64,000 nucleotides of DNA from the NCBI GenBank assembly GCA_027021705.1, contig JALUTT010000048.1:83654-147653 (forward strand). Direction: 5' to 3'. A program made the translations under genes and the position numbers. Positions 9,318 through 63,731 of the stretch are shown in pieces. Under the pieces are notes generated by a model that saw only the letters and a list, made by a program, of their open reading frames with translations, did not search any database and was not told the DNA's origin. Each line of letters opens with the position of its first letter. The first letter of the stretch is position 1. This DNA comes from Anaerolineae bacterium. Lineage in GTDB: Bacteria > Chloroflexota > Anaerolineae > S140-20.

Positions 9318-9330
9318 GCTAGGAGGTCCT

Positions 9331-11097: not shown

Positions 11098-11115
11098 TGC
11101 ATAGGGAAGGAGGAT

Positions 11116-13156: not shown

Positions 13157-13170
13157 AGGGATGCCCACGA

Positions 13171-29476: not shown

Positions 29477-29491
29477 CAGGGCAGCCGGGCT

Positions 29492-34597: not shown

Positions 34598-34747
34598 CTT
34601 GCCGAGCCGAGTGTAAAAGGGATCGGGTGGCGGGGGTGGGGACGGGCATTGAGAGGGGGGAAAACCCATCCCCACTGCCCGCCGCGTGGGAAAGACGGCC
34701 CTGGCCGCCGAGCCATCCTCTGGTCGGTTGGCCGGGGCCGCGCTTTG

Positions 34748-43022: not shown

Positions 43023-43597
43023 GCAGGCCATCCCCGTGGACGGTGGTGCTGATCGTAGAGGACGACTCCGATGGCCATACGTTGAAGGCTTTGGTCGAAC
43101 GGCTGGGCCTCGCCATCCGCCTGGATTGGCTCCCGGCTAACGGCATCGGGAACATCAAGCGACGGGGAGGTCTTTTGATCGCGCTGGCCCGGGACCGCAT
43201 ACGCGATGGGCGTGGATGTGTGGCCGTTCTCCTGGACCGGGATGGTAAGGATGTGACCCGGTCGGAGCCCCATCGTACCATTCGCAGGCTTTGCAGGCAG
43301 GAAAAGGTTCCCCTGCTCCTGGCTGTTGAGGCCCTGGAAGCTTGGCTGCTGGCCGATGCTGGCTGTGCAGGGTGGTTGGGCATAACCTCGCCATCTAACG
43401 CCGATAGCGTGGCCCATCCCAAGAAGCAAGTTGAGCGGGCCTATCGCCGACGAACGGGCCGTTCCTATAACCGCCGGGCTCGGCGCATCTTGGCTGAGAA
43501 GGCCGATGGTTCAGCACCTGAGCGCAGTCCATCGTTACGACAGGCATTGGCGCACCTAAGCGATTCCCCTTGTGGTGAGATCAGCCTGGCGCGATAG
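43019..43597 (+). CDS. DUF4276/RloB-like TOPRIM-fold protein
   Basis: IVEDDSD, LLDRD, EALEAWLLAD, HPK, SPS; ATGA-coupled to the ATPase. Confidence 0.7.
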   Translation: MSRPSPWTVVLIVEDDSDGHTLKALVERLGLAIRLDWLPANGIGNIKRRGGLLIALARDRIRDGRGCVAVLLDRDGKDVTRSEPHRTIRRLCRQEKVPLLLAVEALEAWLLADAGCAGWLGITSPSNADSVAHPKKQVERAYRRRTGRSYNRRARRILAEKADGSAPERSPSLRQALAHLSDSPCGEISLAR

Positions 43598-45400: not shown

Positions 45401-45452
45401 AGGACTAAGGACTGCGGACTGCGGACTGCGGACTTCAACAAGGAGGTATCCG

Positions 45453-47165
45453 ATGGACCTATCCCATCTTCTCACCGTCGCCCGGGGGGATGCACCGGCC
45501 GATCTGGTGCTCCGCAACGGGCGCGTGGTCAACGTCTTCACCGGCGAGATCGTTGAAGCCGACGTCGCCATCGCCGGCGACACCATCGTCGGGCTGGGGG
45601 CCGGCTATGAGGGCCGCGAGACGATGGACCTGCAGGGTCGCTACCTCTGCCCCGGCCTCATTGACGCCCACGTCCACATCGAGAGCAGCATGGTCACGCC
45701 CCCCCAGTTCGCCCGCGCCGTCGTCCCCCGGGGCACCACCAGCGTCGTCTGCGATCCCCACGAGATCGCCAATGTGGCCGGGCTCGCCGGCATCCGCTAC
45801 ATGCTGGACGCCTCCGAAGGGTTGCCCCTCACCGTCTTCGTCAACGCCTCCTCCTGCGTGCCCGCCACGCCGATGGGCACCGCCGGGGCCACCCTGACGG
45901 CCGAGGACTTGGTGACGCTCCACGACCACCCCCGCGTCCCCGGCCTGGCCGAGATGATGAACTTCCCCGGCACGGTGATGGGCTTCCCCGACGTCCTGGC
46001 CAAGATCGAGGCCTACCGGGACAAGGTGGTGGACGGCCACAGCCCCGGCCTCAGTGGGAAGCAACTCAACGCCTACGTCGCCGCCGGCATCGGCTCCGAC
46101 CACGAGTGCATCACCGCCGAGGAGGCGCGGGAGAAGCTGCGGCTGGGGATGCGCATCTTCCTGCGGGAGGCGACGGGGGCCAAGAACCTGCGTGACCTGC
46201 TGCCCGTCGTCACGCCGGCCAACAGCCGCCGCTGCGCCCTCTGCACCGACGACCGCCACCCCCACGACCTGCTGGAGGAGGGCCACCTGGACCACCTGAT
46301 CCGTCTGGCCGTCGCCGAAGGGCTGGACCCGGTGACGGCCATCCAGATGGCGACCCTCAACGTGGCCGAATGGTTCCGGCTCTGGGACCGGGGGGCCATT
46401 GCGCCGGGGAAGCGGGCGGACCTGGTGGTGGTCTCCGACCTGCGGGACTTCCGGGCAGAGCTGGTCTTCAGTGGCGGTCGGTTGGTCGCCCGAGAGGGGG
46501 AACCGGTGGGCGACTGGCCCATCCCTCGGCCCGACGAGAGCGCCGTCCGTGACACCGTGCACCTCCAGATGTCCCACGTCCGTCTGGAGATCCCGGCCCA
46601 GGGGGAGCGGGTGCGGGTCATCGGTGTCGTGCCCGACCAGATCGTGACCCGCCACCTGGTGGAGCCGGTGGCCCGGCGGGATGGGCTGGCGGTGGCCGAC
46701 CCGGAGCGGGACCTGCTGAAGATGGCGGTCATCGAGCGCCACCGGGGGACGGGCAACGTCGGCCTGGGCTTCATTCGGGGGCTGGGGCTGAAGCGGGGGG
46801 CCATCGCCGGGACGGTGGCCCACGACCACCACAACGTCGTCGTGGCCGGCGCCGACGACGAGAGCATGCGCACGGCGGTGCGGGCGGTGGCCGAGATGGG
46901 GGGTGGGCTGGCGGCGGCCTACGGCGAGACGGTCCTGGCTCGGCTGCCCCTGCCCATCGGCGGGCTGATGTCCGACCGGCCCATCGAGGAGGTGCGCCGG
47001 CAGATGGACGCGCTGCTGGCGGCGACCCGCGAGTTAGGCTCTCCCTTGCACGACCCCTTTATGGTGCTCAGCTTTATGGCGCTGGAGGTGATCCCGTCGC
47101 TGAAGCTGACCGACCAGGGGCTGGTGGACGTGGAGGCTTTTGACTTCGTGGACCTCTTCGCATAG
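45453..47165 (+). CDS. ade: Adenine deaminase
   Basis: DAHVHIESS, DPHEIANV, EMMNFPG, DGH, SDHE, TDD, AHDHHN. Confidence 0.95.
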   Translation: MDLSHLLTVARGDAPADLVLRNGRVVNVFTGEIVEADVAIAGDTIVGLGAGYEGRETMDLQGRYLCPGLIDAHVHIESSMVTPPQFARAVVPRGTTSVVCDPHEIANVAGLAGIRYMLDASEGLPLTVFVNASSCVPATPMGTAGATLTAEDLVTLHDHPRVPGLAEMMNFPGTVMGFPDVLAKIEAYRDKVVDGHSPGLSGKQLNAYVAAGIGSDHECITAEEAREKLRLGMRIFLREATGAKNLRDLLPVVTPANSRRCALCTDDRHPHDLLEEGHLDHLIRLAVAEGLDPVTAIQMATLNVAEWFRLWDRGAIAPGKRADLVVVSDLRDFRAELVFSGGRLVAREGEPVGDWPIPRPDESAVRDTVHLQMSHVRLEIPAQGERVRVIGVVPDQIVTRHLVEPVARRDGLAVADPERDLLKMAVIERHRGTGNVGLGFIRGLGLKRGAIAGTVAHDHHNVVVAGADDESMRTAVRAVAEMGGGLAAAYGETVLARLPLPIGGLMSDRPIEEVRRQMDALLAATRELGSPLHDPFMVLSFMALEVIPSLKLTDQGLVDVEAFDFVDLFA

Positions 47166-48753
47166 CCCTGTAGAGAGTGACGTCCCCTTCGGACCACACC
47201 GCCGTCAGCCCCAGCGCCTCCACCGGCAGGTCGCGGCTCCCCATCCGCGCGCGCTCTCGGGGGCCGACGAGGAGGTAGTCCACATCGTAGCTCCTCAGCA
47301 GGGCCTGGCGGGAGGCCAGCGTCGCCGTCGGTGCGAAGAAGGCGGCCACCTTCTCCTTCATCGCCTCTGCCCGAACCGTCTCGAAGGGATGGCCGTAGAG
47401 GACGCGCTGGCCGGACCAAGCGGGGATGAAGAGCCCCGTCTCCGGCGCGGCCAGGACGAGGGTAGCCCGGAGGGGATGGTCGGCCAGCCGGTCGAGGGCG
47501 GCCCGCTCTCCCCGGGTTAGGAAGAGGAGGTCGCTGCGGGAGAGGCCGCCGATGAGGGAGAGCAGGAGCAGGAAGGCGGTCCCGGGCAGTGTGGCGGCGG
47601 CCAGCCCCCGGGCCAGGCGGGGGCGCCCCTGCGTCACCATCGCCTGCAGCCCCGCCTCGGCCAGGAGCGCCAGGGGGATGTGGAGCCCCAGGACCAGCCG
47701 CCGTTGGAGGGGGAAGGGGGCGTAGAGGAGCGGGGCCGTCACGCCCACCCAGGCCAGGAGGAGGAGGTCGCCGTCGCTGCGGCGGCGGGCTGCCCGGACC
47801 GCGCCCAGGAGCGCCGGGGGCAGCAGGAGGCCGTACCCCACCAGGTAGGCCCAGACGGGCGGGGAAGGCGTGAGGTTCTGGGCGTTCCATCCGGCCAGCG
47901 CCGGGTTGGTCCGCACCACCCAGGCGTCGTAGAGGAGGATCGGTGCGGCGGCGAAGCCGGCCAGGAAGAGCGGCCCTACCTCGGCCCGGAGCGTCGGCCA
48001 GGCGAGGCGGCCCTGTTGTCGGTTTTGCAGCCCTCGCAGCCCTCGCAACCCGAGGAAGGCTCCCAGGATCAGGAAGAGGGCCGGGACGGCGAAGGGCTGG
48101 ATGAGGGCCAGGGCAACTGTAGCTCCCATCAGGAGGGGGGTCCGGCTCCGGGATGGGATCAGGCCCGTCCCCCAGCCGGCGATCAGGAGCATCAGCGCCA
48201 TCGCCAGGGGGAAGTGGGGGTTGGCAAAGAGGGCGTAGAAGGTGTTGGCCTCCGGCATCCAGAGGTCCACCGGCCAGCGTTCGGCCTCCACGTTTCCCAG
48301 CAGGGGGAGCGTCAGCCAGCCCAGGCCGGAGGAGAGGGCGACGAGGAAGAAGGCCCGCCGGCGGCGGTCCATCGCCGGGATGGGGAGCACTCGGGCGGCG
48401 AAGCGGTCGGCGACCAAGAGCAGGAAGAAGCCGTTGACCGCCCGGGCCAGGTGGTAGAGGGCGGTGAGGGAGAGGCCGGTCCAGCGGGCCAGGTGGCCCA
48501 GGAAGAGGTAGTACAGGAAGAGGAAGGCGCCGGGGTGGTCGGTGGCCGTGTAGGGCAGGTGGAACTGCCAGCTTCCGGCGTAGCCCTGGCGCATCTTGGC
48601 CAGGTAGGAGTTGCCGTCCAGCGGGTTGCTCAGCAGCCCGGTGAAGGTCAGGTTGCCGGGGGTGGTGGCGGCGACGATGAGGTAGGGCAGCGAGGCCAGG
48701 AGCACAACGCCGGCCGCCGCTCCCCAGGGCCAAGGTAGAGATTTTCGTGTCAT
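47074..48753 (-). CDS. Polytopic membrane protein, GT-C glycosyltransferase-like
   Basis: TM1 followed by NPLDGNSYLAKMRQG loop, many TM helices, C-terminal YGHPFET..GPRE domain; 3' end overlaps ade. Confidence 0.6.
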   Translation of the reverse strand: MTRKSLPWPWGAAAGVVLLASLPYLIVAATTPGNLTFTGLLSNPLDGNSYLAKMRQGYAGSWQFHLPYTATDHPGAFLFLYYLFLGHLARWTGLSLTALYHLARAVNGFFLLLVADRFAARVLPIPAMDRRRRAFFLVALSSGLGWLTLPLLGNVEAERWPVDLWMPEANTFYALFANPHFPLAMALMLLIAGWGTGLIPSRSRTPLLMGATVALALIQPFAVPALFLILGAFLGLRGLRGLQNRQQGRLAWPTLRAEVGPLFLAGFAAAPILLYDAWVVRTNPALAGWNAQNLTPSPPVWAYLVGYGLLLPPALLGAVRAARRRSDGDLLLLAWVGVTAPLLYAPFPLQRRLVLGLHIPLALLAEAGLQAMVTQGRPRLARGLAAATLPGTAFLLLLSLIGGLSRSDLLFLTRGERAALDRLADHPLRATLVLAAPETGLFIPAWSGQRVLYGHPFETVRAEAMKEKVAAFFAPTATLASRQALLRSYDVDYLLVGPRERARMGSRDLPVEALGLTAVWSEGDVTLYRAMRRGPRSQKPPRPPAPGRSASATGSPPAP

Positions 48754-48894
48754 TGCTCTCTCGTCAACGAATTGGGGGAACGGGTAGCTGCCTCTCCCCC
48801 GAAAATATGATACACTACCTCTCGGCAGTTGTAAAGCCCTCTTCCTCTTCTCGCCGGGTCCGCGATCCGGCGGGCCGGGGAAGCGCCGCAATGC

Positions 48895-48950
48895 ACCCGT
48901 CGCCTTGTCGCCTTGTTGCCCCGTCAACTCATTGCCTCACTGCCTTGTTG
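48895..48950. repeat. Degenerate 8-mer tandem array (TYGCCYYR)
   Basis: TCGCCTTG TCGCCTTG TTGCCCCG..TTGCCTCA CTGCCTTG; same family at 57628-57680. Confidence 0.65.
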
Positions 48951-48988
48951 ACCCATAGGTTCGTTGATCCACCAACCGGAGGCTCCCG

Positions 48989-49750
48989 ATGCGCGACACG
49001 ACCTTCTTCGAGCAGGTCACCCAGGTCGAGACCCCCTGGCGCGACCAGACGATCCGGCTGCCCATCTTCTACTACGACGTCACCACCGTCGCCGCCGCCT
49101 TCCTGACCCCGTTGGCCCCGGTGCGGGCCCTGCTCCCCTCCCCTCGACTCCAACCGCTGCGGGCCACCCCCTGGCACACGGTGACCATCATCACCGCCTT
49201 CGAGTACCGCGACAGCGACATCGGCCCCTACAACGAAGTCGCCATCGCCTTCCCCATCACCCTGGACCGGCCGGCCCCGATCCTCACCGGCCTCCTGCGG
49301 GCAATGGCGGCGGGGCCGCTGGCCTACGTCCACCACCTGCCGGTGACGACGGAGATCGCCTACCACGCCGGCGTGGACTTCTACAACTACCCCAAGTTCG
49401 TCGCCCAGATCACCTTCCGGCGGGAGGGGGAGTGGCTGCACTGCCACCTGGCCGAGGGAGAGCGTTCCATCCTCACCCTGACGGTGCGCCAGCTTCCCAC
49501 GCGCCCCTTCGACCGCTGGCGCTTCCACGGCATCACCTTCCGCGAGGAGCGCATCCTGCGCAGTGAGGTCATCGTCAACGTGCGCCGGCAGGCCATCTCC
49601 CGCAACCCGGCCCACGTTCGCCTGGCACTGGGCGACCACCCCATCGCCCAGGAGCTGCGGGACCTGGGCCTGGGGCGGGCCGTCCACGTCCAGTACATCC
49701 CCCAGAACCAGGCCATTCTGACGCCGGTGCTGGAGAGCTATGGGGCGTGA
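48989..49750 (+). CDS. Acetoacetate decarboxylase-like (ADC superfamily) protein
   Basis: LPIFYYD, FEYRDSDIGPYNE, HLPVT, G...YNYPKF (Schiff-base Lys position). Confidence 0.8.
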   Translation: MRDTTFFEQVTQVETPWRDQTIRLPIFYYDVTTVAAAFLTPLAPVRALLPSPRLQPLRATPWHTVTIITAFEYRDSDIGPYNEVAIAFPITLDRPAPILTGLLRAMAAGPLAYVHHLPVTTEIAYHAGVDFYNYPKFVAQITFRREGEWLHCHLAEGERSILTLTVRQLPTRPFDRWRFHGITFREERILRSEVIVNVRRQAISRNPAHVRLALGDHPIAQELRDLGLGRAVHVQYIPQNQAILTPVLESYGA

Positions 49751-49871
49751 AGCGTGAGGCGTGAGGCGTGAAACGTGGGGCGTGAGGCGTGAAACGTGAG
49801 GCGTGAAACGTGAGGCGTGAAGCGTGAAGCGTGAGGCGTGAAGCGTGAAACGTGAGGCGTGAAACGTGAAG
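49746..49871. repeat. Heptamer tandem array (CGTGARR) x18
   Basis: Exact 7-nt period, starting at the ADC stop codon. Confidence 0.95.
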
Positions 49872-49892
49872 GGTAAGGAGTAGGGGAGTTCG

Positions 49893-51314
49893 ATGCGCGA
49901 ACCGTCGTTGTTGGAGGCTTATCCGGCTTTAGAGTTGATCCGGCGTTCCCACCCCCGCTTCGTTGAGCGGTTGGCCCGGGTCCAGGAGGACGCCCGCGAC
50001 TTCGCCCGGCGCTACGTGGCCCCCATCGCCCTGGAGGTGGACGCCCGCGTCGCCCGCGAGCCCACCTACTTCCCCTGGGAGATCGTCCATCGGGGGGCCG
50101 AGCGGGGCTACCTCACCTTCAACCTGCCCCGGATGGTCGGCGGAGGCGGCCAGACGACGCTGGCGACGTCCATCCTGATGGAAGAGCTCTGCGCCCAGTG
50201 CGCCGGCATCGCCAACATCTTCGGTGCCCACGCCCTGGGGCTGGCCCCCCTGCTGGTGGGCGGCTACGATATGCAGAAGTACTACCGCTTCCTCCAGGAA
50301 ACGGTCCGGGGCGAACGGGAGGGGCAGCCGGTCCTCTGGGCCTTCGCCATCACCGAACCCGGCGCCGGCTCCGACATCGAGGACGCCGATGAGGTGAACC
50401 GGATCGAGGGGATCACCCACGCCCGGCGGGTCGCAGGGGGCTACCGGCTCAACGGGCGCAAGGTCTTCATCTCCAACGGCAGCGTGGCCCGGTACGTCAC
50501 CGTCTACGCCGCCCTGGACCGGGCCGACCCCCGCCGGACGATGGTCGGCCTGGTGGTGCCCAGCGATGCCCCCGGCTTCACCGTGGCCCGCGTCGAGCAC
50601 AAGATGGGCCAGCGGGCCTGTCCGGCGGCCGAACTGGTCTTCGAGGACCTCTTCGTGCCGGAGGAGTACCGGATGGGGGCCGAGGGGGCGGGGATGGCCC
50701 AGTTGGAGGCGGTGCTGAGCGCCTCGCGGGGGCCGGTGGGGGCCATCGCCACCGGCATCGCCCGGGGGGCGCTGGAGCGGGCCTGGGCCTACGCCGCCGA
50801 CAAGGTGGTGGACGGCCACCGGCTCATCGAGGAGCAGTGGGTCCAGATCGCCCTGGCCGAGATGGCCACCCAGGTCCACGCCGCCCGCCAGGCCTACTTC
50901 GCCGCCACGCTGCTGGTGGACTTGACCAACCCGATCCTCTCCCGTGCCATCGTCGGGCGGACCGACGTGGGCGGCTTGGTGGAGCGGCTGATCGGGGCCG
51001 TCGTGGACCTGGGGCTGGTGCGGGCGCTGACGACGCAGCCGGCCGTCAGCAGCGCCATCACCGCCTACCTGACGGAGCGGGAGACGCCGGCGGTCCGGCG
51101 CTCTCGCGCCTTGCGCTCGGCTCTGGCCTCGGCGGCCAAGGTGCTGGGCAGCGATGCAGCGATGGCCGTCACCGCCCGCGCCCTGGAGATCGCCGGGGCC
51201 GACGGCACCCGCCGCGAGCTGGGGCTGGAGAAGCAGTTCCGGGATGCCAAGCTGACCCAAATCTACGAGGGGACCAACCAGATCAACCGGCTGAACCTCT
51301 TCAAGCGGCTGTAG
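49893..51314 (+). CDS. Acyl-CoA/acyl-ACP dehydrogenase (catalytic-type subunit, with insertion)
   Basis: FAITEPGAGSD, LNGRKVFISNG, KMGQR, RDAKLTQIYEGTNQ. Confidence 0.9.
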   Translation: MREPSLLEAYPALELIRRSHPRFVERLARVQEDARDFARRYVAPIALEVDARVAREPTYFPWEIVHRGAERGYLTFNLPRMVGGGGQTTLATSILMEELCAQCAGIANIFGAHALGLAPLLVGGYDMQKYYRFLQETVRGEREGQPVLWAFAITEPGAGSDIEDADEVNRIEGITHARRVAGGYRLNGRKVFISNGSVARYVTVYAALDRADPRRTMVGLVVPSDAPGFTVARVEHKMGQRACPAAELVFEDLFVPEEYRMGAEGAGMAQLEAVLSASRGPVGAIATGIARGALERAWAYAADKVVDGHRLIEEQWVQIALAEMATQVHAARQAYFAATLLVDLTNPILSRAIVGRTDVGGLVERLIGAVVDLGLVRALTTQPAVSSAITAYLTERETPAVRRSRALRSALASAAKVLGSDAAMAVTARALEIAGADGTRRELGLEKQFRDAKLTQIYEGTNQINRLNLFKRL

Positions 51315-51324
51315 GGGAGAAACG

Positions 51325-52410
51325 ATGACCGAATTGACCGCAATCCAGACAGCCGTGCGCACCTTTGCCCAGCGGAGCGTCCGGCCGGCCCTGGAGACCT
51401 ACGACCGGCAGCCTGACTCCGGCTTCCCTTGGAGCATCGTGCAGCAGGGGGAGGCGATGGGGCTCACGCTGATGACGGTGCCGGAGGCCTGGGGTGGGGC
51501 AGGGATGGACCTGGTCGCCGCCGGCGTGGCCCTGGAGGAGGTCGCGGCGGTCTGTCCCGGCTTCGCTACCCTCTTCGCCGCGTCCTTGTGGGGGATCGCG
51601 CCGCTGGTGCTGGCGGCCGACGAGGTCCGGGGCCGGCGGCTGCTGGAGACCTCGCCTGCCGAGGGGGCTGCCACCCGGCTGGCCGCCCTCGTCGCGCCGG
51701 AGATGGGGCGGACGCCGACGGTGCGGGCCGTCCCCCAGGACAACGGCTACCGGCTGGATGGGGAAGCCCCCTTCGTCTTCAACGCCGGCGTGGCCGGCCT
51801 CTACACCCTCTTCGCCGAGGCCGGCGAGGGGATGATCTGCGCCGCCCTGCCGGCCGGAAGCCCCGGCCTGCACGTCAGCAGCCCCATCGCCAAGCTGGGG
51901 CTCCAAGTGGCCCCGGCCGGCGACCTGACCTTCGAGGGCGTGTGGGTGCCGGAGGAGAACCTCCTGGCCCGGTCCGGCGACGCGGAGGCGCTCCTGCGCC
52001 GGGTCGAGGCCTGGCGTCAGGGGCTGATCGGCGCGGTGGCCGTGGGCATCCTCCGGGCAGCGTTGCGGGAGGCGACGGCCTACGCCCAACAGCGTCGCCA
52101 GGGCGGGAAGCTCATCATCCACCACCACGCCGTCGCCACCCTCCTGGCCGAGATGCGGATGGGGCTGGAGGCCGCCCGGGCCGTCGTCCGTCAGGCGCTG
52201 GGCGAGCCCGAAGACCCCGATCGGGCGCTCCTGGCCCGCCTCCACGCCACCGAAGCAGCTTGCGCGGCCACCACCGACGCCGTCCAGGTCTTCGGCGGCT
52301 ACGGCTACATGGCCGACTACCCCGTCGAGAAGCTGATGTGCGATGCTCGCCAACTCGCCCTCATCGGCGGGAGCAACAGCCGGCTGCGTCTGCTGACCGT
52401 CGCGGCCTAG
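51325..52410 (+). CDS. Acyl-CoA dehydrogenase-like protein (degenerate, probably non-catalytic partner)
   Basis: KLGL, RRQGGK and QVFGGYGY are kept; the TEP motif is absent and YEGT is replaced by IGGS. Confidence 0.8.
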   Translation: MTELTAIQTAVRTFAQRSVRPALETYDRQPDSGFPWSIVQQGEAMGLTLMTVPEAWGGAGMDLVAAGVALEEVAAVCPGFATLFAASLWGIAPLVLAADEVRGRRLLETSPAEGAATRLAALVAPEMGRTPTVRAVPQDNGYRLDGEAPFVFNAGVAGLYTLFAEAGEGMICAALPAGSPGLHVSSPIAKLGLQVAPAGDLTFEGVWVPEENLLARSGDAEALLRRVEAWRQGLIGAVAVGILRAALREATAYAQQRRQGGKLIIHHHAVATLLAEMRMGLEAARAVVRQALGEPEDPDRALLARLHATEAACAATTDAVQVFGGYGYMADYPVEKLMCDARQLALIGGSNSRLRLLTVAA

Positions 52411-52574
52411 CGGCTAGCGGCCTGGCGGCCTAGCGGCTAGCGGCCTAGCGGCCTAGCGGCTAGCGGCCTGGCGGCCTAGCGGCTAGCGGCCTGGCGGCCT
52501 AGCGATTAGCGGCTTAGCGGCGGACTGAGGACTGAGGACTGAGGACCACCTGACCACCCGACCACTCGACCATC
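52402..52574. repeat. Composite short tandem array: (GCGGC[C]TA/G)n + (GGACTGA)3 + (GACCACYY)4
   Basis: Starts at the ACAD2 stop codon; 7/8-nt units. Confidence 0.9.
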
Positions 52575-52580
52575 CCCGTT

Positions 52581-52635
52581 TCTAACACGCTTTTAACCCC
52601 CACGCAACCTGGGTTTAACGATTCCCTGTTAGACT
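52581..52635 (+). promoter_or_regulatory. Activator-dependent promoter: four 11-bp-period (T)AAC boxes + extended -10
   Basis: AAC ends at 52586, 52597, 52608 and 52619; TGtTAGACT at 52627-52635. Confidence 0.65.
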
Positions 52636-52736
52636 GTCGGACGGTAGGGGGGCCCTTTCGCCCTTCCTCTTGGCGTTGTGTGGGTGCGGGCGAAGGGAAA
52701 AGCCGGTAAAGGTATCCGACATCAGGAGGGGTAGAG

Positions 52737-52991
52737 ATGACCATTGAGGAGCAGATTCGTCGTTACCTGGCCGAGAACTTCCTCTTCTCCGACAACGGCT
52801 TCCAGTTCGACGATGAAGCATCCTTCCTGGAAGAAGGGATCGTGGACTCCACCGGGGTGCTGGAGCTGATCCTCTTCGCCGAAGAGACCTTTGGCATCCA
52901 GGTGGAGGATGACGAGGTCGTCCCGGAGAACTTTGACTCGGTGCGCAGTCTGGCGGACTACATCCGACGCAAGATGGGGCAGCCGGCGTAG
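52737..52991 (+). CDS. Acyl carrier protein
   Basis: Acidic 84 aa, GIVDSTG phosphopantetheine Ser, ENFDS. Confidence 0.93.
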   Translation: MTIEEQIRRYLAENFLFSDNGFQFDDEASFLEEGIVDSTGVLELILFAEETFGIQVEDDEVVPENFDSVRSLADYIRRKMGQPA

Positions 52992-53017
52992 CCCCCTTGT
53001 AGAGCCTGGAGCGGCCC

Positions 53018-54553
53018 ATGTTGCTCGTACAGGATTTCCTTCAGGAGAGTGCCCAACGGACGCCGGACAAGGTGGCGCTGATCTGCGACGGTCAGCGCCT
53101 GACCTATGCCCAGGTGGATGCGATGGCCGATCGGTTGGCCAACGCCCTGCGAGACCACGGGGTGCAGCGGGGCGACCGGGTGGTGATCTTCCTGCCCAAC
53201 AGCGTCGAGGCGGCCGTTTCCATTTTCGCCGTGCTCAAGGCCGGCGCCGTCTTCGTCGTCATCAACGCCACGACCAAGCCCCAGAAGCTGGCCTACATCC
53301 TCAACAACAGCCGGGCGACGGCGCTGATCACCTGGGACCGCCGGGCCGACGTCGCCGCCCAGATGAAGGCCCAGGTCCCTTCCCTCAAGTTCGCCGTCCT
53401 GACCGGAAAGAAGGCGGGAGAGCGGGCTGCCCTGCGGGAGGATTTCCTCGCCTTCGACGAGATCCAGGCCCACTACCCGGCCACCCGCCCGCCCCGGCTC
53501 TGCATTGACCAGGACCTGGCCTGCCTCATCTACACCTCCGGCAGCACCGGCGAGCCCAAGGGGGTGATGTCGGCCCACAGCAACGTCGTCGCAGCGGCTT
53601 CGTCCATCATCCAGTACCTCCAGAACGTCCCCGAGGACATCATCATCAACGTGCTGCCCCTCAGTTTCGACTACGGCCTCTACCAACTCCTGATGGCCTT
53701 TAAGTTCGGTGGCACGCTGGTGCTAGAGCGCTCCTTCGCCTACCCGGCCCAGATCCTCCGCCGGATGGAGGAGGAGCGGGTGACCGGCTTCCCCGGCGTT
53801 CCCACCATCTTCGCCATCTTGTTGCAGATGGACCTCAGCCCCTACGACCTCTCCAGCCTGCGCTACATGACCAACACGGCGGCCGCGCTGCCCCCCAGCC
53901 ACATCCAGCAACTGCGGGAGAAGTTCCCCTGGGTGACCCTCTACTCGATGTACGGCCTGACCGAGTGCAAGCGGGTCTCCTACCTGCCGCCGGAGGAGCT
54001 GGACCGCCGGCCCGCCTCCGTGGGCATCCCCATCCCCAACAGCGAGGTCTGGATCGTGGACGAGGAGGGGAACCGGCTGGGACCGCGCCAGATCGGCGAG
54101 TTGGTCGTCCGGGGAGCCCACGTGATGCGGGGCTACTGGGAGGCCCCCGAGGCCACGGCCGAGCGCTACCGTCCCGGCCCCCTGCCCGGCGAGCGGGTCC
54201 TCTACACCGGTGACCTCTTCTGGATGGACGAGGATGGGTTCCTCTACTTCGTCGGGCGCAAGGACGACATCATCAAGAGTCGGGGCGAAAAGGTCGCGCC
54301 CAAGGAGATCGAAAACGTCCTCTACGAGATCCCCGGCGTCGTCGAGGCCGCCGTCATCGGCGTTCCCGATCCCATCTTGGGGGAGGCGATCAAAGCCTTC
54401 GTCGTCCTCGACGGCGTGACGCTCACCGAGAGAGATATTCTGCGCCACTGCCGGGCCCGCCTGGAGGACTTTATGGTGCCCCAGTACGTGGAGATTCGCG
54501 ACAGCCTGCCCAAGACCGCCAGTGGGAAGATCAAGAAGACCGCGCTGAGGTAG
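53018..54553 (+). CDS. Adenylate-forming enzyme (acyl-CoA/ACP ligase)
   Basis: YTSGSTGEPKG, PLSFDYG, YGLTE, TGD, GRKDD, LPKTASGK. Confidence 0.93.
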   Translation: MLLVQDFLQESAQRTPDKVALICDGQRLTYAQVDAMADRLANALRDHGVQRGDRVVIFLPNSVEAAVSIFAVLKAGAVFVVINATTKPQKLAYILNNSRATALITWDRRADVAAQMKAQVPSLKFAVLTGKKAGERAALREDFLAFDEIQAHYPATRPPRLCIDQDLACLIYTSGSTGEPKGVMSAHSNVVAAASSIIQYLQNVPEDIIINVLPLSFDYGLYQLLMAFKFGGTLVLERSFAYPAQILRRMEEERVTGFPGVPTIFAILLQMDLSPYDLSSLRYMTNTAAALPPSHIQQLREKFPWVTLYSMYGLTECKRVSYLPPEELDRRPASVGIPIPNSEVWIVDEEGNRLGPRQIGELVVRGAHVMRGYWEAPEATAERYRPGPLPGERVLYTGDLFWMDEDGFLYFVGRKDDIIKSRGEKVAPKEIENVLYEIPGVVEAAVIGVPDPILGEAIKAFVVLDGVTLTERDILRHCRARLEDFMVPQYVEIRDSLPKTASGKIKKTALR

Positions 54554-54560
54554 GGGACCT

Positions 54561-56591
54561 ATGTGTGGCATCGTCGGCACCCTCAACCTGACCAAGGCCC
54601 ATCCCATCCAAGAGAGCACCCTGCGTCAGATGCTGGGGATGATCCGCCACCGGGGGCCGGATCAGTTCGGCCTCTACCTGGACGACCTGGTGGGGCTGGG
54701 GAACGCCCGCCTGAGCATCATTGACCTGGGCGGCGGGCAACAGCCCATCGGCAACGAGGCGGAGACCCTCTGGATCGTCTTCAACGGGGAGATCTTCAAC
54801 TACGTGGAACTGCGCCCAACGCTGGAGGCGCGGGGCCACCGTTTCGCCACCGACACCGATACCGAGGTCATCGTCCACCTCTACGAGGAGTACGGCACCG
54901 ACTGCGTCCAGTACCTCAACGGTCAGTTCGCCTTCGCCCTCTGGGACAGCGAGACGGAAACGCTCTTCCTGGCCCGTGACCGGCTGGGCATCCGCCCCCT
55001 CTACTACACCGTTCAGGATGGGGCCTTGATCTTCGCCTCGGAGATCAAGGCGCTCCTGGCCGATCCCCGGGTGCCGGCCGCGTTGGACCCGGTGACGCTG
55101 GACCAGATCTTCACCTTCTGGAGCCCTCTTTCCCCCCGCACCGCCTTTCAGGGGATCTTGACGCTGCCGCCGGGCCACACGCTGGTTGCCCGGCGGGGCC
55201 GGCTCTTCCTGGAGCGCTACTGGCGGCTCGACTTCCCCGAGGCAGGCCAAGAGCCCCGTCGCCCCGTCGAGGAGTATGCCGACGAGCTGCGCACCCTGCT
55301 CATTGACGCCACCCGCATCCGGCTGCGGGCCGACGTGCCGGTGGGGGCCTACCTGAGCGGTGGGCTGGACTCCTCGACGATCACCGCCCTGATCCGCCGC
55401 TACACGGGCAACGACCTGGAGACCTTCTCCATCGCCTTCACCGACGAGAACTACGACGAGAGCGGCTTCCAGCGGGAGATGGCCCGCTTCCTGGGCACCC
55501 GTCACCACCAGATCACCTGCACCCACGACGACATCGGGGAGGTCTTCCCCCAGGTGATCTGGCACACCGAGGTGCCCATTATGCGCACCTCGCCGGCTCC
55601 CCTCTTCCTCCTCTCCCGGCTGGTGCGGGACCACGGCCTGAAGGTCGTCCTCACGGGCGAGGGGGCCGACGAGTTCCTGGCCGGCTACAACATCTTCAAA
55701 GAGGCGAAGATCCGCCGCTTCTGGGCCCGACAACCCGATTCCCCCTGGCGCCCCCTGCTCCTCCATCGGCTCTACCCCTACATCCAGGAGTTGCAGGAGG
55801 GAGGGCGCTACCTGACCGCCTTCTTCGGGCGCCGGCTCACCGACGTGCACGCCGCCGACTATTCCCACGCCATCCGCTGGCACAACACCAGCCGGACGCG
55901 CCGCTTCTTCTCGAGGCAGTTGCGGGCTTCTCTCAACGGCTGGGACGGCCCGCCCACCAGCAAGATCACCCTGGACGAGCGCTTCTTCCGCTGGAGCCCG
56001 CTGGCCCAGGCCCAGTACCTGGAGATCACCATCTTCCTCGCCGAGTACCTGCTCTCCTCCCAAGGGGATCGGGTGGCGATGGCCCATTCCATCGAGGGGC
56101 GCTTCCCCTTCCTCGACTACCGGGTGGTCGAGTTCTGCAACCGGCTGCCGCCCACGCTGAAGCTGCGCGGTCTGCAGGAGAAGTACCTGCTCAAGCGGGC
56201 GATGAAGGACCTCCTGCCGGAACAGGTGTGGCGCCGGCCCAAGCGACCCTACCGGGCCCCCATCCACCGCAGCTTCTTCCCCGGCGGCCGGCCCCTGGAC
56301 TACGTGGAGCACCTGCTCTCCCCTCAGGTGGTGGCGGAGGCGGGCTACTTCAACCCCCGGGCGGTCCAGCAGCTGGTGGCCAAGATTCGGCGCGGAGGGC
56401 CGGTGGGGGAGAGCGATGAGATGGCGCTGGCCGGCATTCTCTCGACCCAACTGGTTCACCAGCTCTTCATCGAAGGGTTCCGGCCGCATCCTCCCCTCAC
56501 TGCCGAGGACGACGTGAAGGTCGTGGCCCGAGGACCCCACGCCCGCCGTGGGGACGTCCTGCAGGTCACCGGCGGTGGGAGACAAGCCTGA
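54561..56591 (+). CDS. asnB: Asparagine synthase (glutamine-hydrolysing)-like amidotransferase
   Basis: MCGI N-terminal Cys, HRGPD, NGEIFN, DTE, LSGGLDSS, GEGADE, RFPFLD. Confidence 0.92.
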   Translation: MCGIVGTLNLTKAHPIQESTLRQMLGMIRHRGPDQFGLYLDDLVGLGNARLSIIDLGGGQQPIGNEAETLWIVFNGEIFNYVELRPTLEARGHRFATDTDTEVIVHLYEEYGTDCVQYLNGQFAFALWDSETETLFLARDRLGIRPLYYTVQDGALIFASEIKALLADPRVPAALDPVTLDQIFTFWSPLSPRTAFQGILTLPPGHTLVARRGRLFLERYWRLDFPEAGQEPRRPVEEYADELRTLLIDATRIRLRADVPVGAYLSGGLDSSTITALIRRYTGNDLETFSIAFTDENYDESGFQREMARFLGTRHHQITCTHDDIGEVFPQVIWHTEVPIMRTSPAPLFLLSRLVRDHGLKVVLTGEGADEFLAGYNIFKEAKIRRFWARQPDSPWRPLLLHRLYPYIQELQEGGRYLTAFFGRRLTDVHAADYSHAIRWHNTSRTRRFFSRQLRASLNGWDGPPTSKITLDERFFRWSPLAQAQYLEITIFLAEYLLSSQGDRVAMAHSIEGRFPFLDYRVVEFCNRLPPTLKLRGLQEKYLLKRAMKDLLPEQVWRRPKRPYRAPIHRSFFPGGRPLDYVEHLLSPQVVAEAGYFNPRAVQQLVAKIRRGGPVGESDEMALAGILSTQLVHQLFIEGFRPHPPLTAEDDVKVVARGPHARRGDVLQVTGGGRQA

Positions 56592-56610
56592 GCAAAGGGA
56601 GCAAGAGACG

Positions 56611-57603
56611 ATGGGGTTTCACCGACACGTTTTGGACCTAGACCCGGCCCAGGAGGTCGAGCGCATCGTGGCCCAACTGCGGCGCGATGTTCTGGAGCGG
56701 CTGCACCGTCGCGGTGGCGTCGTCGGCATCAGCGGCGGCGTGGACTCCTCCGTTGTGCTGGCCCTCGCCGTCCGCGCCCTGGGGGCGGAGCGGGTGGTGG
56801 GCGTGCTGCTCCCGGAGAAGGAGTCCAGCCCGGAGAGCGTCGTCCTGGCCCGCCAGGTGGCCCGCCAGTTCGGCGTAGAGACGGTGGTGGAGGATGTGAC
56901 GGGGCCGCTCATCGGCTTCGGGGCCTACCGCCGACGCGACGAGGCCATCCGCGCCATCTTCCCCGAGTACGACGCCACCTACAAGGTCAAGATCACCCTG
57001 CCGCCGGGCATCCTGGAGCGGGGAACCCTCAACGTCTTCCGTTTGACCATCGTCAGCCCCGAGGGGGAGGAGAAGACCCGCCGGCTGCGCCCTCAGGAAC
57101 TGCGCCAGATCGTCGCGGCGACCAACTTCAAGCAGCGCAGCCGGATGGCGATGCTCTACTACCACGCCGAACTGCGGGACTACGCCGTCATCGGCACGGC
57201 CAACAAGAACGAGCACGATCAGGGCTTCTTCGTCAAGTACGGCGATGGCGGGGCCGACGTGATGCCCATCGTGCACCTCTACAAGACCCAGGTCTACCAA
57301 CTGGCGGAGTACCTGGAGATCCCCGAAGAGATCCGCCATCGTCCCCCCACTTCCGACACCTACAGCGCCCCCAGCACCCAGGAGGAGTTCTTCTTCCGGC
57401 TCCCCTTCGAGGTGATGGACCTGCTCTGGTATGCCCAGGAGCACGGCGTCCCTATCCCAGAGGTGGCCCAGGTGATGGGGCTGACCGAGGAGCAGGTGCA
57501 GCGGGTCTTCGACGATCTCACCCGCAAGCGACGGACGACCGACTACCTGCGGATGCCCATCCTGCGGCTGGACGGGGGGCAGGGCGGCGGGACCGCGGGA
57601 TAG
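56611..57603 (+). CDS. nadE: NH3-dependent NAD+ synthetase-like ATP pyrophosphatase
   Basis: GISGGVDS, NFKQRSRM, GFFVKYGDG, LYKTQVY, RPPT; no glutaminase domain. Confidence 0.85.
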   Translation: MGFHRHVLDLDPAQEVERIVAQLRRDVLERLHRRGGVVGISGGVDSSVVLALAVRALGAERVVGVLLPEKESSPESVVLARQVARQFGVETVVEDVTGPLIGFGAYRRRDEAIRAIFPEYDATYKVKITLPPGILERGTLNVFRLTIVSPEGEEKTRRLRPQELRQIVAATNFKQRSRMAMLYYHAELRDYAVIGTANKNEHDQGFFVKYGDGGADVMPIVHLYKTQVYQLAEYLEIPEEIRHRPPTSDTYSAPSTQEEFFFRLPFEVMDLLWYAQEHGVPIPEVAQVMGLTEEQVQRVFDDLTRKRRTTDYLRMPILRLDGGQGGGTAG

Positions 57604-57695
57604 AGTAGCAGAATAGCCTCTGCATCCCATCGCCTCGTCGCCTCATTGCCTCATCACCCCACTGCCCCATTGCCTCGTTCCCCCCTCACCACGAT

Positions 57696-63623: not shown

Positions 63624-63638
63624 AGCACCCTCCCCAAG

Positions 63639-63693
63639 CGAACTGCGAATTGCAAACCACAGACTGCGAATGGCGAATGGCAGGTTGCGATTC
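63639..63693. repeat. Degenerate heptamer array (GCGAAT-like)
   Basis: GCGAACT GCGAATT GCAAACC ACAGACT GCGAATG GCGAATG. Confidence 0.6.
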
Positions 63694-63702
63694 CTCTTCC
63701 CC

Positions 63703-63731
63703 ATTGTATCCTCTCTCGGAGCAGGTGTCAA
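63703..63731 (-). promoter_or_regulatory. Sigma70 promoter of the SH3-repeat hydrolase
   Basis: Minus-strand TTGACA (63726-63731), N17, TACAAT (63703-63708). Confidence 0.8.

Follow-up and report, generated by a model that had tools for sequence, protein, structure and literature searches.

Does a run of seven co-oriented genes in an Anaerolineae bacterium, centred on an acyl carrier protein (ACP) and facing a divergent membrane-protein gene, encode one biosynthetic pathway, and what would that pathway make? The window analysed here is a stretch of 64,000 nucleotides, and a preliminary description made from its letters had read these genes as a single orphan cluster, in which a quartet known from Sinorhizobium meliloti is extended by an acetoacetate-decarboxylase-like (ADC-like) enzyme, two acyl-CoA dehydrogenase homologues (ACADs) and a GT-C-like membrane protein. 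As listed in Table 1, all eight genes were found in place with the domains assigned to them (Pfam, open reading frame list), and the window's eight ORFs have a coding-type GC3 of 0.82-0.94. A Pfam search of the cluster genes also bore out that neither a ketosynthase nor a condensation domain is encoded among them. The claim of intact motifs held for the AsnB-like enzyme, the ligase, the ACP, the NadE-like enzyme and ACAD1 and failed for ACAD2, because there IGGSN replaces YEGTN and the middle domain falls below the Pfam cut-off (30.5 vs 33.3). The NadE-like gene is present, and its start, given earlier as 56548, was corrected by homologue alignment to a position at which it no longer overlaps asnB.

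Table 1. Genes and tandem repeats of the locus (positions in the window)
Positions	Strand	Feature	Remarks
47074..48927	-	multi-pass membrane protein, possibly ArnT/PMT-like (GT-C)	divergent neighbour
48989..49750	+	divergent acetoacetate-decarboxylase-superfamily protein (ADC-like), 253 aa	Pfam ADC; neighbour
49745..49871		tandem array, 7-bp unit GCGTGAA x18	fills ADC-ACAD1 gap; Tandem Repeats Finder
49893..51314	+	ACAD1, catalytically equipped acyl-CoA/ACP dehydrogenase homologue, 473 aa	neighbour
51325..52410	+	ACAD2, degenerate ACAD partner, 361 aa	starts 10 bp past ACAD1; neighbour
52402..52572		tandem arrays GCGGCCTA x15.6, GGACTGA x3.6, GACCACCC x3.6	ACAD2-ACP gap; Tandem Repeats Finder
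52737..52991	+	ACP, dedicated acyl/aminoacyl carrier, 84 aa	Pfam PP-binding; gene 1 of quartet
53018..54553	+	stand-alone adenylating ligase, 511 aa	Pfam AMP-binding + AMP-binding_C; VinN-type pocket
54561..56591	+	AsnB-like glutamine-dependent amidotransferase, 676 aa	Pfam GATase_7 + Asn_synthase
56611..57603	+	NadE-like PP-loop ATP-pyrophosphatase, 330 aa	Pfam NAD_synthase; PRK00876/NF002048 subfamily

A one-genome-per-species pattern scan returned at least 562 stretches encoding a NadE-like relative, and the best 80 of these, 56-77% identical to the NadE-like protein of the window, were taken as the locus sample. They come from Chloroflexota, Planctomycetota, Calditrichota, Cyanobacteria, Acidobacteriota, Ignavibacteria, Verrucomicrobia, Gemmatimonas and Proteobacteria. 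All three partners lay beside the NadE-like gene at 54 of these best 80 loci, in about ten phyla and in several gene orders; counted singly, AsnB was a neighbour at 65, the ligase at 64 and the ACP at 60 of the 80. The other 26 loci are incomplete and mostly truncated by contig ends: in 23 of them the upstream part of the contig is shorter than 8.7 kb. At one locus two NadE-like copies flank the ACP, and its 12-kb contig carries no AsnB. The quartet is also borne by plasmids and chromids, and it was annotated at all five inspected plasmid loci that had a full-length NadE-like gene. The recurring unit is thus the set ACP-ligase-AsnB-like-NadE-like (52737-57603), a portable module across many phyla.

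The four remaining genes do not travel with it. Relatives of the ADC-like protein, of either ACAD or of the membrane protein were found at none of the best 80 genome loci (of at least 562) and at none of the first three plasmid loci inspected, and with the coverage filter off no ADC or ACAD homologue appeared within 10 kb of the quartet in the same loci. The two closest loci among the matches listed (75-77% NadE identity) share only the four quartet genes with the window and carry different genes upstream of the ACP. The proposed extension, and with it the idea of one conserved cluster of eight genes, finds no counterpart in this sample, in which ADC or ACAD genes never co-occurred with the quartet. 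Within the window, repeat-filled gaps of 142 bp (ADC/ACAD1) and 326 bp (ACAD2/ACP) split the ADC gene, the ACAD pair and the quartet from one another, whereas gaps inside the quartet are only 7-26 bp; an AGGAGG ribosome-binding site stands immediately 5' of the ACP ATG.

It could nevertheless be argued that the seven genes, possibly with the GT-C-like protein, form one pathway to a lineage-specific product, in which the ACADs and the ADC-like enzyme modify the ACP-bound acid, either ahead of its amidation or afterwards. The genes are adjacent and co-oriented, and no clear terminator was seen between them. ACAD homologues act on carrier-bound aminoacyl groups, and the window ACADs match the prolyl-PCP dehydrogenase models PigA and RedW, but with 116-124 bits, far under the cut-offs. 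ACADs also occur in Rahnella and Tritonibacter clusters around related VinN-like ligases, yet these are only generically similar (28-30% identity). Similarly, the amino-acid tailoring enzyme MppR belongs to the ADC superfamily, but the closest plasmid-borne relative of the ADC-like protein, in Nostoc (50% identity), is solitary, and the Agrobacterium relative keeps different partners. With the distribution described above, we consider this arrangement unlikely. The ADC-like protein, the two ACADs, which look like a heteromeric pair, and the GT-C-like protein are probably neighbours here, outside the conserved system.

As to these neighbours themselves, the ADC-like protein scores 64 bits with Pfam ADC (cut-off 29.8) and has a single lysine, K136, that is invariant in 18/18 relatives. 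It had no match at E<=1 among the sequences of solved structures; in a structure comparison its model (pLDDT 89.6) matched ADC, Swit_4259, Sbi00515 and MppR. ACAD1 matches all three acyl-CoA dehydrogenase domains of Pfam and contains YEGTN and TEPGAGSD; the match is split in a way that points to an insertion within its C-terminal domain. ACAD2 is 33% identical to ACAD1 and has TSPAEGAATR for TEPGAGSD. The membrane protein stays under every curated cut-off (DUF6541 21.9 vs 29; YYY domain 24.7 vs 300), and its possible ArnT/PMT-like (GT-C) nature is suggested by 8-9 hydrophobic segments and by language-model leads, namely Atlas neighbours that carry the names ArnT-family or PMT_2. Translation probably begins at M59 (position 48753), and a promoter-like site lies near its gene at 48835-48807 on the minus strand.

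The ligase of the quartet has the motif YTSGSTGEPKG and the final GK. Its best NCBIfam model, TIGR03098, gives 517 bits, under the cut-off of 592, and among solved relatives the LgrA A domain (331 bits) and VinN (274) come before FadD13 (197), placing it nearer to A domains than to fatty-acyl ligases. For the pocket stretch VinN was the first match, in a gapless alignment (FDY / NT / TECKR) in which D-Y of the window ligase corresponds to VinN D230-F231 and T to S299, and TECKR is identical at K330-R331; the likeness consists of five pocket residues, two of which differ conservatively from those of VinN (Y for F and T for S). VinN is a (3-methyl)aspartate-loading enzyme, and according to PMC11253843 its pocket binds the amino group and the carboxylate at the Asp, Lys and Arg positions. 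SlgN1, as the same source describes, binds this substrate the other way round, so the identity of the tethered carboxyl is uncertain. The full code D-Y-Y-T-L-[TC]-K-R-K is present in 42/61 locus ligases, S. meliloti among them, and Arg319 is retained in 60/62 aligned sequences. Other codes, without the amino-binding Asp, occur in 19/61, and the substrate therefore differs among systems. A fatty-acid-type ligase was rejected in view of the VinN-like residues at the specificity positions (D/Y, T, K-R), and the pocket residues lead us to predict that the enzyme loads an aspartate-type amino-dicarboxylate on the ACP. The ACP has its phosphopantetheine serine, S38, within VDSTG, and D37 and S38 are invariant in 20/20 aligned ACPs.

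A lipid pathway has been weighed as well, in which a fatty-acyl-AMP/ACP ligase charges the ACP with a long-chain (di)carboxylic fatty acid and the amidotransferases turn it into a fatty amide or an amino-lipid head group. A 2009 S. meliloti study reportedly found SMb20651 acylated with C12:0/C18:0 in E. coli, which would favour such a fatty-acyl reading. The second-best model of the ACP is the ornithine-lipid ACP NF052616, though at 49 bits vs a cut-off of 130, and Shinella has lipid genes close by, though on the other strand. However, the ligase has Asp, Lys and Arg where VinN binds the amino group and the carboxylate, and the recurrent neighbours of the quartet are glycan genes, not lipid genes. 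According to PMC7232532, SMb20650 brings about the acylation of SMb20651 in E. coli but cannot substitute for FadD, either in growth on oleate or in the removal of free fatty acids. We regard a lipid product as quite improbable.

The two remaining enzymes of the quartet are of the amide-forming kind. The AsnB-like protein has an MCG N-terminus and SGGLDS, with the Cys2 nucleophile and the PP-loop intact; it reaches 468 bits with TIGR03108, under the cut-off of 817, and among solved structures it comes closest to the hydroxyamidotransferase 7ylz and to AsnB of E. coli. The NadE-like protein contains SGGVDS, its model has the NadE fold (TM 0.75 to 2e18, 25% identity), and it carries a conserved insert some 65 residues long. 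Residues 94-171 were skipped in the sequence alignment to solved NadEs, and many residues of the insert, including R108, R109, K127 and R158, are invariant in the family. The NadE-like protein also occurs in fusions. AsnB is the partner in P0127, for example (1026 aa, 16 member sequences), the ligase in P0128, P0131, P0132 and P0135, a condensation domain in P0129 and a GT2 in P0136; errors of gene calling on metagenome contigs may account for some of these. That these two genes are simply the asparagine synthetase and the ammonia-dependent NAD synthetase of the cell, by chance beside an ACP and a ligase, accords with the fold, with the NCBI naming models passed (TIGR01536 533, cut-off 267; NF002048 469, cut-off 313, and TIGR00552 158 bits, also passed, both of which call the last gene NAD(+) synthase) and with the very high conservation of the NadE-like family across phyla, but is very improbable given the 54 of the best 80 loci that hold the quartet together, the fusions to ligase and condensation domain, carriage on plasmids and chromids, the canonical NadE equivalog models missed (NF010587 178 vs 255; NF001979 101 vs 250) and, according to PMC4207669, the possibility of removing the whole S. 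meliloti pSymB once engA and tRNA-Arg have been relocated. The NadE paralogue probably has a role other than, or besides, NAD synthesis, as the preliminary description had suspected; synteny with ACP and ligase across phyla, fusions to pathway partners, the conserved insert and the copy on a removable replicon all point the same way.

Glycan decoration, one of the products that the preliminary description thought possible, fits the neighbourhoods of the quartet in other genomes. Glycan-type families were found at 47 of the best 80 loci (of at least 562). Of the 47 loci that span 15 kb or more, 34 have such families and the typed families are absent from the other 13; no glycan genes adjoin the quartet in the window or at the S. 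meliloti locus. In Roseiflexus-type loci, PIG-L deacetylase, FemAB-like and DegT genes flank the quartet, and at 7 of the best 80 loci a C-T-TE protein adjoins it.

Taken together, we favour, with a probability of roughly 0.55, a cassette whose dedicated ACP receives an aspartate-type acid, which is then amidated in two steps that each consume ATP; this would give an acyl donor, mostly for glycans, and the quartet probably makes a modified aspartate-like group that decorates cell-surface sugars. Acid loading followed by amidation, as first proposed, thus remains the most economical reading of the quartet, stripped of its ADC, ACAD and GT-C extension. A stand-alone A-domain-type ligase of the VinN kind would adenylate the amino-dicarboxylic acid and thioesterify it to the dedicated ACP, and this loading is the best supported of the steps. 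Tethering would most likely occur via the side-chain carboxyl, leaving the amino group and a carboxylate free, and the AsnB-like enzyme, by analogy, could then use glutamine and ATP to convert that free carboxylate to an amide with the substrate still bound to the ACP. We infer the exact chemistry, above all that of the NadE-like enzyme, which would subject this tethered intermediate to a further ATP-dependent PP-loop reaction and would not primarily synthesise NAD; this step could turn the new amide into a nitrile or an amidine, or amidate another carboxyl. The finished acyl group would pass to genome-specific transferases (Acyl_transf_3, FemAB-like, hexapeptide or GNAT) in polysaccharide loci and, in a minority of genomes, to the C-T-TE protein.

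Ligases from Rahnella and R. gallicum plasmids, 39-43% identical, retain the same pocket and have a type III PLP enzyme and a carrier protein as neighbours, the logic of VinN/VinL/VinO. The S. meliloti quartet named in the preliminary description does exist and is 43-58% identical to that of the window; on its pSymB-type replicon the order is asnB-ACP-ligase-nadE, and in the window it is ACP-ligase-AsnB-like-NadE-like.

The DNA of the window is of high GC content, relatives of its genes point to a Chloroflexota bacterium of Anaerolineae type, and the ORFs between 47074 and 57603 have a GC3 of 0.82-0.94. Coordinates, GC3 and Pfam/NCBIfam matches agree that the genes named in the preliminary description are real; the start of the NadE-like gene had to be corrected (table below). 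As had been claimed, Pfam found neither a ketosynthase nor a condensation domain among the genes of 47074-57603. The motifs were also said to be intact, which holds for ACAD1 (YEGTN, TEPGAGSD), the AsnB-like enzyme and the NadE-like protein, but not for ACAD2, where they have degenerated to IGGSN and TSPAEGAATR at the same places. The genes for the carrier protein (ACP), the ligase, the AsnB-like enzyme and the NadE-like protein, hereafter the quartet, are preceded by the ACAD pair and, further upstream, the ADC-like gene, and are followed by a hybrid histidine kinase and a response regulator. No transferase adjoins the quartet in the window. The other genes of the 64 kb form an ordinary chromosomal set, and a second nadE is not among them.

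Genes between 47074 and 57603 of the window
Product	Coordinates	Strand	Remarks
Multi-pass membrane protein	47074-48927	-	
ADC-family protein (ADC-like)	48989-49750	+	Pfam
ACAD1, acyl-CoA-dehydrogenase homologue	49893-51314	+	
ACAD2, acyl-CoA-dehydrogenase homologue	51325-52410	+	
Carrier protein (ACP)	52737-52991	+	84 aa
AMP-binding ligase	53018-54553	+	
AsnB-type glutamine amidotransferase	54561-56591	+	
NadE-type PP-loop protein	56611-57603	+	330 aa; start set from homologues

A one-genome-per-species scan with alignment of the NadE-like protein gave at least 562 confirmed relatives, and the best 80 of these loci were analysed with flanks of up to 10 kb per side. These 80 span Chloroflexota, Planctomycetota, Calditrichota, Cyanobacteria, Acidobacteriota, Ignavibacteria, Verrucomicrobia, Gemmatimonas and Proteobacteria. 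When searched by tblastn with the window proteins, the best 80 of the at least 562 loci contained an AsnB-like homologue in 65 cases, a ligase in 64, an ACP in 60, and all three together in 54. In 23 of the 26 loci without a full set the contig breaks off less than 8.7 kb upstream; a quartet member was missing despite the full 10 kb upstream only in L036, L061 and L073. The quartet is also annotated on plasmids of Mesorhizobium, Nitratireductor, Shinella and Roseateles. In the window its four genes are co-oriented and separated by only 26, 7 and 19 bp.

The preliminary description had extended the quartet by the ADC-like gene, the two ACADs and the GT-C protein, and read the seven co-oriented genes as a single pathway. 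Homologues of the ADC-like protein, ACAD1, ACAD2 and the membrane protein were found in none of the best 80 of the at least 562 genome loci and in none of three plasmid loci, even with the coverage filter off, in a survey that left out the closest relatives, on metagenome contigs (95-98% NadE identity, 97% ADC identity). Among the loci examined, an ACAD or ADC gene thus never stood beside the quartet, which is the outcome that the description itself had named as counting against its proposal. The two loci closest to the window among these 80 (75-77% NadE identity) share only the quartet genes with it, and in ORF clustering every non-quartet gene family occurred in at most 13 loci. The closest plasmid relative of the ADC-like protein (Nostoc, 50% identity) is solitary and the next one has unrelated partners, and a tblastn search of plasmids with ACAD2 returned generic ACADs alone, at no more than 37% identity. 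ACAD1 and ACAD2 are spaced by 10 bp, but two large gaps, of 142 bp between the ADC-like gene and ACAD1 and of 326 bp between ACAD2 and the ACP gene, both packed with 7-8-bp tandem arrays, split the ADC-like gene, the ACAD pair and the quartet. A promoter/terminator scan was uninformative: its two promoter-like sites both lie away from these gaps, and a single weak terminator-like site falls where ACAD1 begins. Rfam detected no riboswitch upstream of the ACP gene in the whole window and seven related loci, a tRNA in L041 being the sole match. On the basis of the synteny across loci, the absent neighbours and the gap spacing, we conclude that the quartet is the conserved unit. Our main reading, to which we give a probability of about 0.55, is that it is a tailoring cassette built on a stand-alone A enzyme and its ACP. 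A seven-gene pathway including the ADC-like protein and the ACAD pair is improbable, and the orphan cluster as first drawn appears to be mostly an accident of adjacency.

Several further features of these loci were observed. Intergenic tandem arrays with units of 7-8 bp lie at 49745-49871, 52402-52572, 45409-45434, 18660-18776, 57628-57670 and 34353-34610, and often start exactly at a stop codon; the units are GCGTGAA (x18), GCGGCCTA (x15.6), GGACTGA, GGACTGC, GACCACCC and GGGACCAA. Short tandemly repeated sequences are known in filamentous cyanobacteria, and the arrays of the window recall them. Two Chloroflexota loci (L008, about 8200-10000, and L010, 7590-8164) have a split quartet, in which asnB and the NadE-like gene are parted by a MazF/PemK-type toxin-antitoxin pair and other small ORFs. 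Proteins of about 430 aa with a DUF362 domain directly adjoin the quartet in several phyla, either after NadE (L028, L051, L053, L082) or between ACP and ligase (L017, L057, L071), and could be a fifth, facultative member. Directly upstream of asnB and in the same orientation, Shinella, Roseateles and Nitratireductor carry a gene for a protein of 360-370 aa, of which a Gemmatimonas locus has a relative at 31-32% identity (coordinates for this group of genes: L087 4106-5215, L088 4140-5216, L003 7113-8225, L072 3431-4528). The protein matches no Pfam family, and the window holds no relative of it.

By HMM, beta-cone fold and a candidate Schiff-base lysine, the ADC-like protein belongs to the acetoacetate decarboxylase superfamily. 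It scored 64 against the Pfam ADC model (cut-off 29.8), and although no solved structure was matched by sequence, its model (pLDDT 89.6) matched acetoacetate decarboxylases, Swit_4259, Sbi00515 and MppR (3bh2, 3c8w, 5upb, 4zbt, 4jmd; probability 1.0). It contains a single lysine, K136 in YPKF, which all of 18 relatives share, and from this motif we infer it to be the counterpart of ADC Lys115. The two ACADs are 33% identical and adjacent, and only ACAD1 keeps the catalytic Glu and the nucleotide-binding motifs; because the motifs of ACAD2 are degenerate the pair looks like an active and an inactive subunit. This pattern of one catalytic and one degenerate member is what we take to define the FadE26/27-type alpha2beta2 pairs. 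As to the GT-C protein, a multi-pass membrane protein with 8-9 hydrophobic segments is indeed present, but the family reading did not reach any curated cut-off (DUF6541, 21.9 against 29; TIGR03662, 24.7 against 300). Its description as ArnT/PMT-like rests on hydrophobicity and on language-model neighbours, since its Atlas feature neighbours bear ArnT-family names and PMT_2 occurs in 26-57% of the members of further clusters. Its translation probably begins at M59 (coordinate 48753).

The ligase was best matched in NCBIfam by TIGR03098 (517.2 bits, cut-off 592.35), and the amino-acid adenylation domain model scored 298 (cut-off 317). Among solved structures the LgrA A domain (331 bits) and VinN (274 bits), a stand-alone A enzyme that loads (3-methyl)aspartate (3WV4/3WVN), came out on top, with fatty-acyl ligases as weaker matches (FadD13, for example, 197 bits). 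When the pocket region was used as the query, VinN was first by a wide margin, in a gap-free alignment that pairs FDYGLYQ of the ligase with WDFGLYK of VinN, TNTAAALP with TNSAAALP, and YGLTECKRVSY with YGQTECKRISI. In VinN, D230 contacts the beta-amino group, F231 and S299 narrow the pocket, and K330/R331 are the key residues in a loop with one residue fewer than its counterpart in alpha-amino-acid A domains (PMC11253843). The window ligase carries D, Y, T, K and R at the corresponding sites and a loop of equal length, and so presents a VinN-type pocket, the exchanges of F for Y and of S for T being conservative. K330 and R331 are presumably the residues that hold the free carboxylate. The nine-position code D-Y-Y-T-L-[TC]-K-R-K was found in 42 of 61 ligases of the loci analysed, S. 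meliloti and Mesorhizobium included, and the arginine was kept in 60 of 62 aligned sequences. The remaining 19 of 61 fall into variant classes without the Asp, and therefore the acid loaded in some systems is probably a related one with no amino group.

Ligases with 39-43% identity on plasmids of Rahnella, R. gallicum and Tritonibacter keep the pocket and adjoin a carrier protein. The VinN-like ligases of Rahnella and R. gallicum also have a type III PLP enzyme as a neighbour, which is the layout of VinN, its ACP VinL and the PLP decarboxylase VinO. Ramos-Vega et al. reportedly observed in 2009 C12/C18 acylation of the S. meliloti ACP in E. coli. The SMb20650 ligase gives acylated SMb20651 ACP in E. 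coli, and is no substitute for FadD (PMC7232532). Judged from its residues, the pocket of the window ligase is of the aspartate type and not of the fatty-acid type; because of the pocket match, the conservation of the code, the sister systems and the FadD result, loading of an aspartate-type amino-dicarboxylate is the predicted activity, with the reported C12/C18 acylation as a caution. A reading of the ACP as the OlsH/I type of ornithine-lipid synthesis was rejected, as it scored 49 against an NCBIfam cut-off of 130 and the GH3-like enzyme on which that pathway depends is missing here. Two of these plasmids carry uncharacterised clusters built on VinN-like ligase/carrier pairs (L089, Rahnella, 3742-14846; L091, Tritonibacter, 485-13412). 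KAS III homologues, additional A enzymes and ACADs are encoded in both, with the type III PLP enzyme in the former and a P450 in the latter, and they look like beta-amino-acid-primed pathways outside actinomycetes.

The AsnB-like enzyme has the Cys2 nucleophile and the SGGLDS loop. Its closest solved structures are the hydroxyamidotransferase 7ylz and E. coli AsnB, and its second-best NCBIfam model is TIGR03108 (468, cut-off 816.9). The NadE-like protein, with the PP-loop SGGVDS, lies above the cut-offs of TIGR00552 (158 against 64) and of NF002048 (469 against 313), the latter placing it in the PRK00876 subfamily, and below those of the canonical ammonia-dependent equivalogs NF010587 (178 against 255) and NF001979 (101 against 250). 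Its alignments to solved NadEs bypass residues 94-171. A conserved insert occupies about residues 94-160, and the insert residues invariant in 18 family members include R108, R109, K127 and R158. The structural model (pLDDT 76) shows the NadE fold with an insert of helices and a three-stranded sheet, and it matched NadE structures with a Foldseek probability of 1.0 and a TM of 0.74-0.77 on the target (2e18, 0.75; 1xng, 3fiu, 3p52) at 19-25% identity.

A search for longer proteins, with domain order verified in 13, revealed NadE-like proteins fused to AsnB (P0125, P0127, P0130), to the ligase (P0128, P0131, P0132, P0135), and to a condensation domain (P0129), a methyltransferase (P0126) or a GT2 (P0136), and canonical glutamine-dependent NadEs had much lower scores in the same search. 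In an Aminicenantes locus (L077, 6064-10220), two divergent NadE-like genes, 50% and 58% identical to that of the window, flank an ACP gene, with a ligase gene next; no AsnB was found on this 12-kb contig. The S. meliloti cassette is carried by pSymB, the whole of which can be removed after relocation of engA and tRNA-Arg (PMC4207669). Taken together, the synteny, the fusions, the Aminicenantes locus and the removable pSymB suggest that the NadE-like protein serves the pathway and probably not the supply of NAD.

Outside the window, the genes that recur near the quartet belong to polysaccharide pathways. Among the best 80 of the at least 562 loci these were Acyl_transf_3 (13 loci), GT4 (11), GT2 (10), GHMP kinase, Wzz/tyrosine kinase, Epimerase and Hexapeptide transferase (9 each), Bac_transf and PMT_2 (8 each), and Wzy, Sulfotransferase and FemAB-like proteins (6 each), with DegT, CapD, a PIG-L deacetylase, a GNAT and PAPS synthase also recurring. 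At least one of 22 glycan-type families was present in the fetched flanks of 47 of these 80 loci; if only loci of 15 kb or more are counted, the figure is 34 of 47. Roseiflexus-type loci have a PIG-L deacetylase and a GNAT before the ACP, and a FemAB-like protein and DegT after NadE, a layout that fits N-acylation of an amino sugar. In seven of the same 80 loci a condensation-carrier-thioesterase protein adjoins the quartet, and in Mesorhizobium an A-TE protein does so. Since glycan loci are found on the one hand and C-T-TE or A-TE neighbours on the other, the cassette seems to provide acceptors of different kinds with one building block.

In the tailoring scheme that we propose, the ligase would load an aspartate-type amino-dicarboxylate onto the ACP with one carboxylate kept free, and this carboxylate would be amidated here, whereas in the sister systems it would be decarboxylated by the PLP enzyme. 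SlgN1 takes the same substrate in reversed orientation (PMC11253843), and the choice of the tethering carboxyl is therefore uncertain. Because tethering through one carboxyl leaves a single free carboxylate, the amide itself is a possible target of the second step, in which the NadE-like enzyme might activate the new amide with ATP and turn it into a nitrile or amidine; alternatively, it might act on another carboxyl. QueC and the PP-loop domains embedded in NRPSs would be precedents for a step of this amide, nitrile or amidine type. The resulting cyano- or amidino-amino-acyl group would be attached to surface polysaccharides in hundreds of species of about ten phyla and, in some lineages, to small NRPS-like products, and in the genome of the window the ACAD pair and the ADC-like protein could rework the same tethered unit further. 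This extended scheme, with a new kind of carrier-dependent PP-loop enzyme feeding such groups to glycans or NRPS-like products, is speculative and we consider it a long shot.

Elsewhere in the window, a 438-aa protein (27319-28635) consists mostly of 168-bp (56-aa) tandem coding repeats with 95% identity (27544-28101) and has weak coiled-coil-type Pfam matches only, and a 1073-aa protein with bacterial SH3 domains (60510-63731, minus strand) contains an internal duplication of 261 bp (62290-62798). The region of lowest GC (0.58), at 6001-9165, includes a BsoBI-type restriction endonuclease homologue (7924-9165) and may be an acquired restriction-modification island. At 41841-43597, the gene of an AAA_21/AAA_15 ATPase (393 aa) shares 4 bp with an ORF of 192 aa for which Pfam has no family, and the two look like a defence-type gene pair. 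Two minus-strand ORFs, of 1028 aa (13171-16257) and 529 aa (34748-36337), have a coding-type GC3 and no Pfam match at E<=1e-5. An F420-dependent NADP oxidoreductase homologue adjoins an F420-0:gamma-glutamyl ligase at 28760-30298, pointing to the use of coenzyme F420 in this Chloroflexota organism.

The quartet has been an orphan operon ever since it was noticed in S. meliloti. Our literature search with the SMb locus tags and gene-name combinations found no functional assignment, and a 2017 paper gave the function of the S. meliloti ACP as open. Newly recognised are the wide distribution of the strongly conserved cassette, with at least 562 matches in one-per-species genomes, its aspartate-type pocket, its usual home in polysaccharide loci, and the probably repurposed NadE fold. 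A specific question, namely which amino-dicarboxylate is loaded, now replaces an unknown lipid or small molecule, and hundreds of annotations as NAD(+) synthase or asparagine synthase are probable mis-namings. If the proposal is true, bacterial glycans would bear an acyl decoration not yet described, and the NadE fold would catalyse a new reaction.

We compared the quartet with named systems. The EPS enzymes of the XrtA/PEP-CTERM system share the polysaccharide context and provide TIGR03098 and TIGR03108, the best ligase model and second-best AsnB model, with full-length matches; however, the ligase and the AsnB-like enzyme are both below the curated cut-offs, and no exosortase A or PEP-CTERM protein was found among the 43 window ORFs scanned. 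To our knowledge, the XrtA set as described in the TIGRFAM text has no NadE-like partner. OxyD is an AsnB homologue that puts a carboxamide on a short acyl block before downstream assembly, as proposed here for the AsnB-like enzyme, but it works on a malonyl unit in a type II PKS without a dedicated ligase or NadE-like partner. In oxytetracycline synthesis this amidotransferase gives the malonamate starter (PMC6164072). SlgZ of streptolydigin, tried as another AsnB-type precedent, was dropped since its source paper terms it asparaginyl-tRNA-synthetase-like.

Canonical NadE has the PP-loop SGGxDS, the GxFxKxGDG motif and the overall fold in common with the NadE-like protein. In contrast to canonical NadE, which has about 250-280 aa and GYFTK, the NadE-like protein has 330 aa, GFFVK and the conserved insert, and with an identity of only 19-25% it keeps the synteny of the quartet and is sometimes fused to partners of the ACP, ligase or AsnB type. 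The AANH-type PP-loop domains of the albicidin and cystobactamid NRPSs convert carrier-bound asparagine to cyanoalanine or isoasparagine. As PP-loop ATP-pyrophosphatases acting on the amide of a carrier-tethered Asp/Asn they are a lead for the proposed NadE-like step, although they are embedded in NRPS modules.

The vicenistatin system, VinN-VinL-VinO, likewise has a stand-alone A enzyme with a gap-free pocket alignment and a stand-alone ACP, and tailors the tethered amino acid at its free carboxylate, as proposed for the quartet. Our prediction, drawn from this pocket alignment, is that the window ligase works like VinN, the overall similarity being modest (274 bits). The Vin system makes beta-amino-acid starter units of macrolactams, whereas the context of the quartet is glycan loci, and in place of a PLP decarboxylase the quartet has two ATP-pyrophosphatase amidotransferases. 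Because decarboxylase and PKS are absent, the quartet is not a Vin-type system.

The closest counterpart is the S. meliloti pSymB operon asnB-SMb20651(ACP)-SMb20650(ligase)-nadE, reportedly described by Ramos-Vega et al. in 2009. The preliminary description had cited such a quartet, and asnB, ACP, ligase and nadE were indeed found on a pSymB-type replicon, where we take them to be the genes tagged SMb20649-52. That operon has no ADC, ACAD or GT-C neighbours, and asnB comes first in it, whereas the ACP comes first in the window. Both have the same four genes, co-oriented and tightly packed, with identities of 53% for AsnB, 43% for the ACP, 58% for the ligase and 49% for NadE (tblastn, at least half of each query), and the pocket code of the two ligases is the same. 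The window quartet is a member of the SMb20649-52-type operon.
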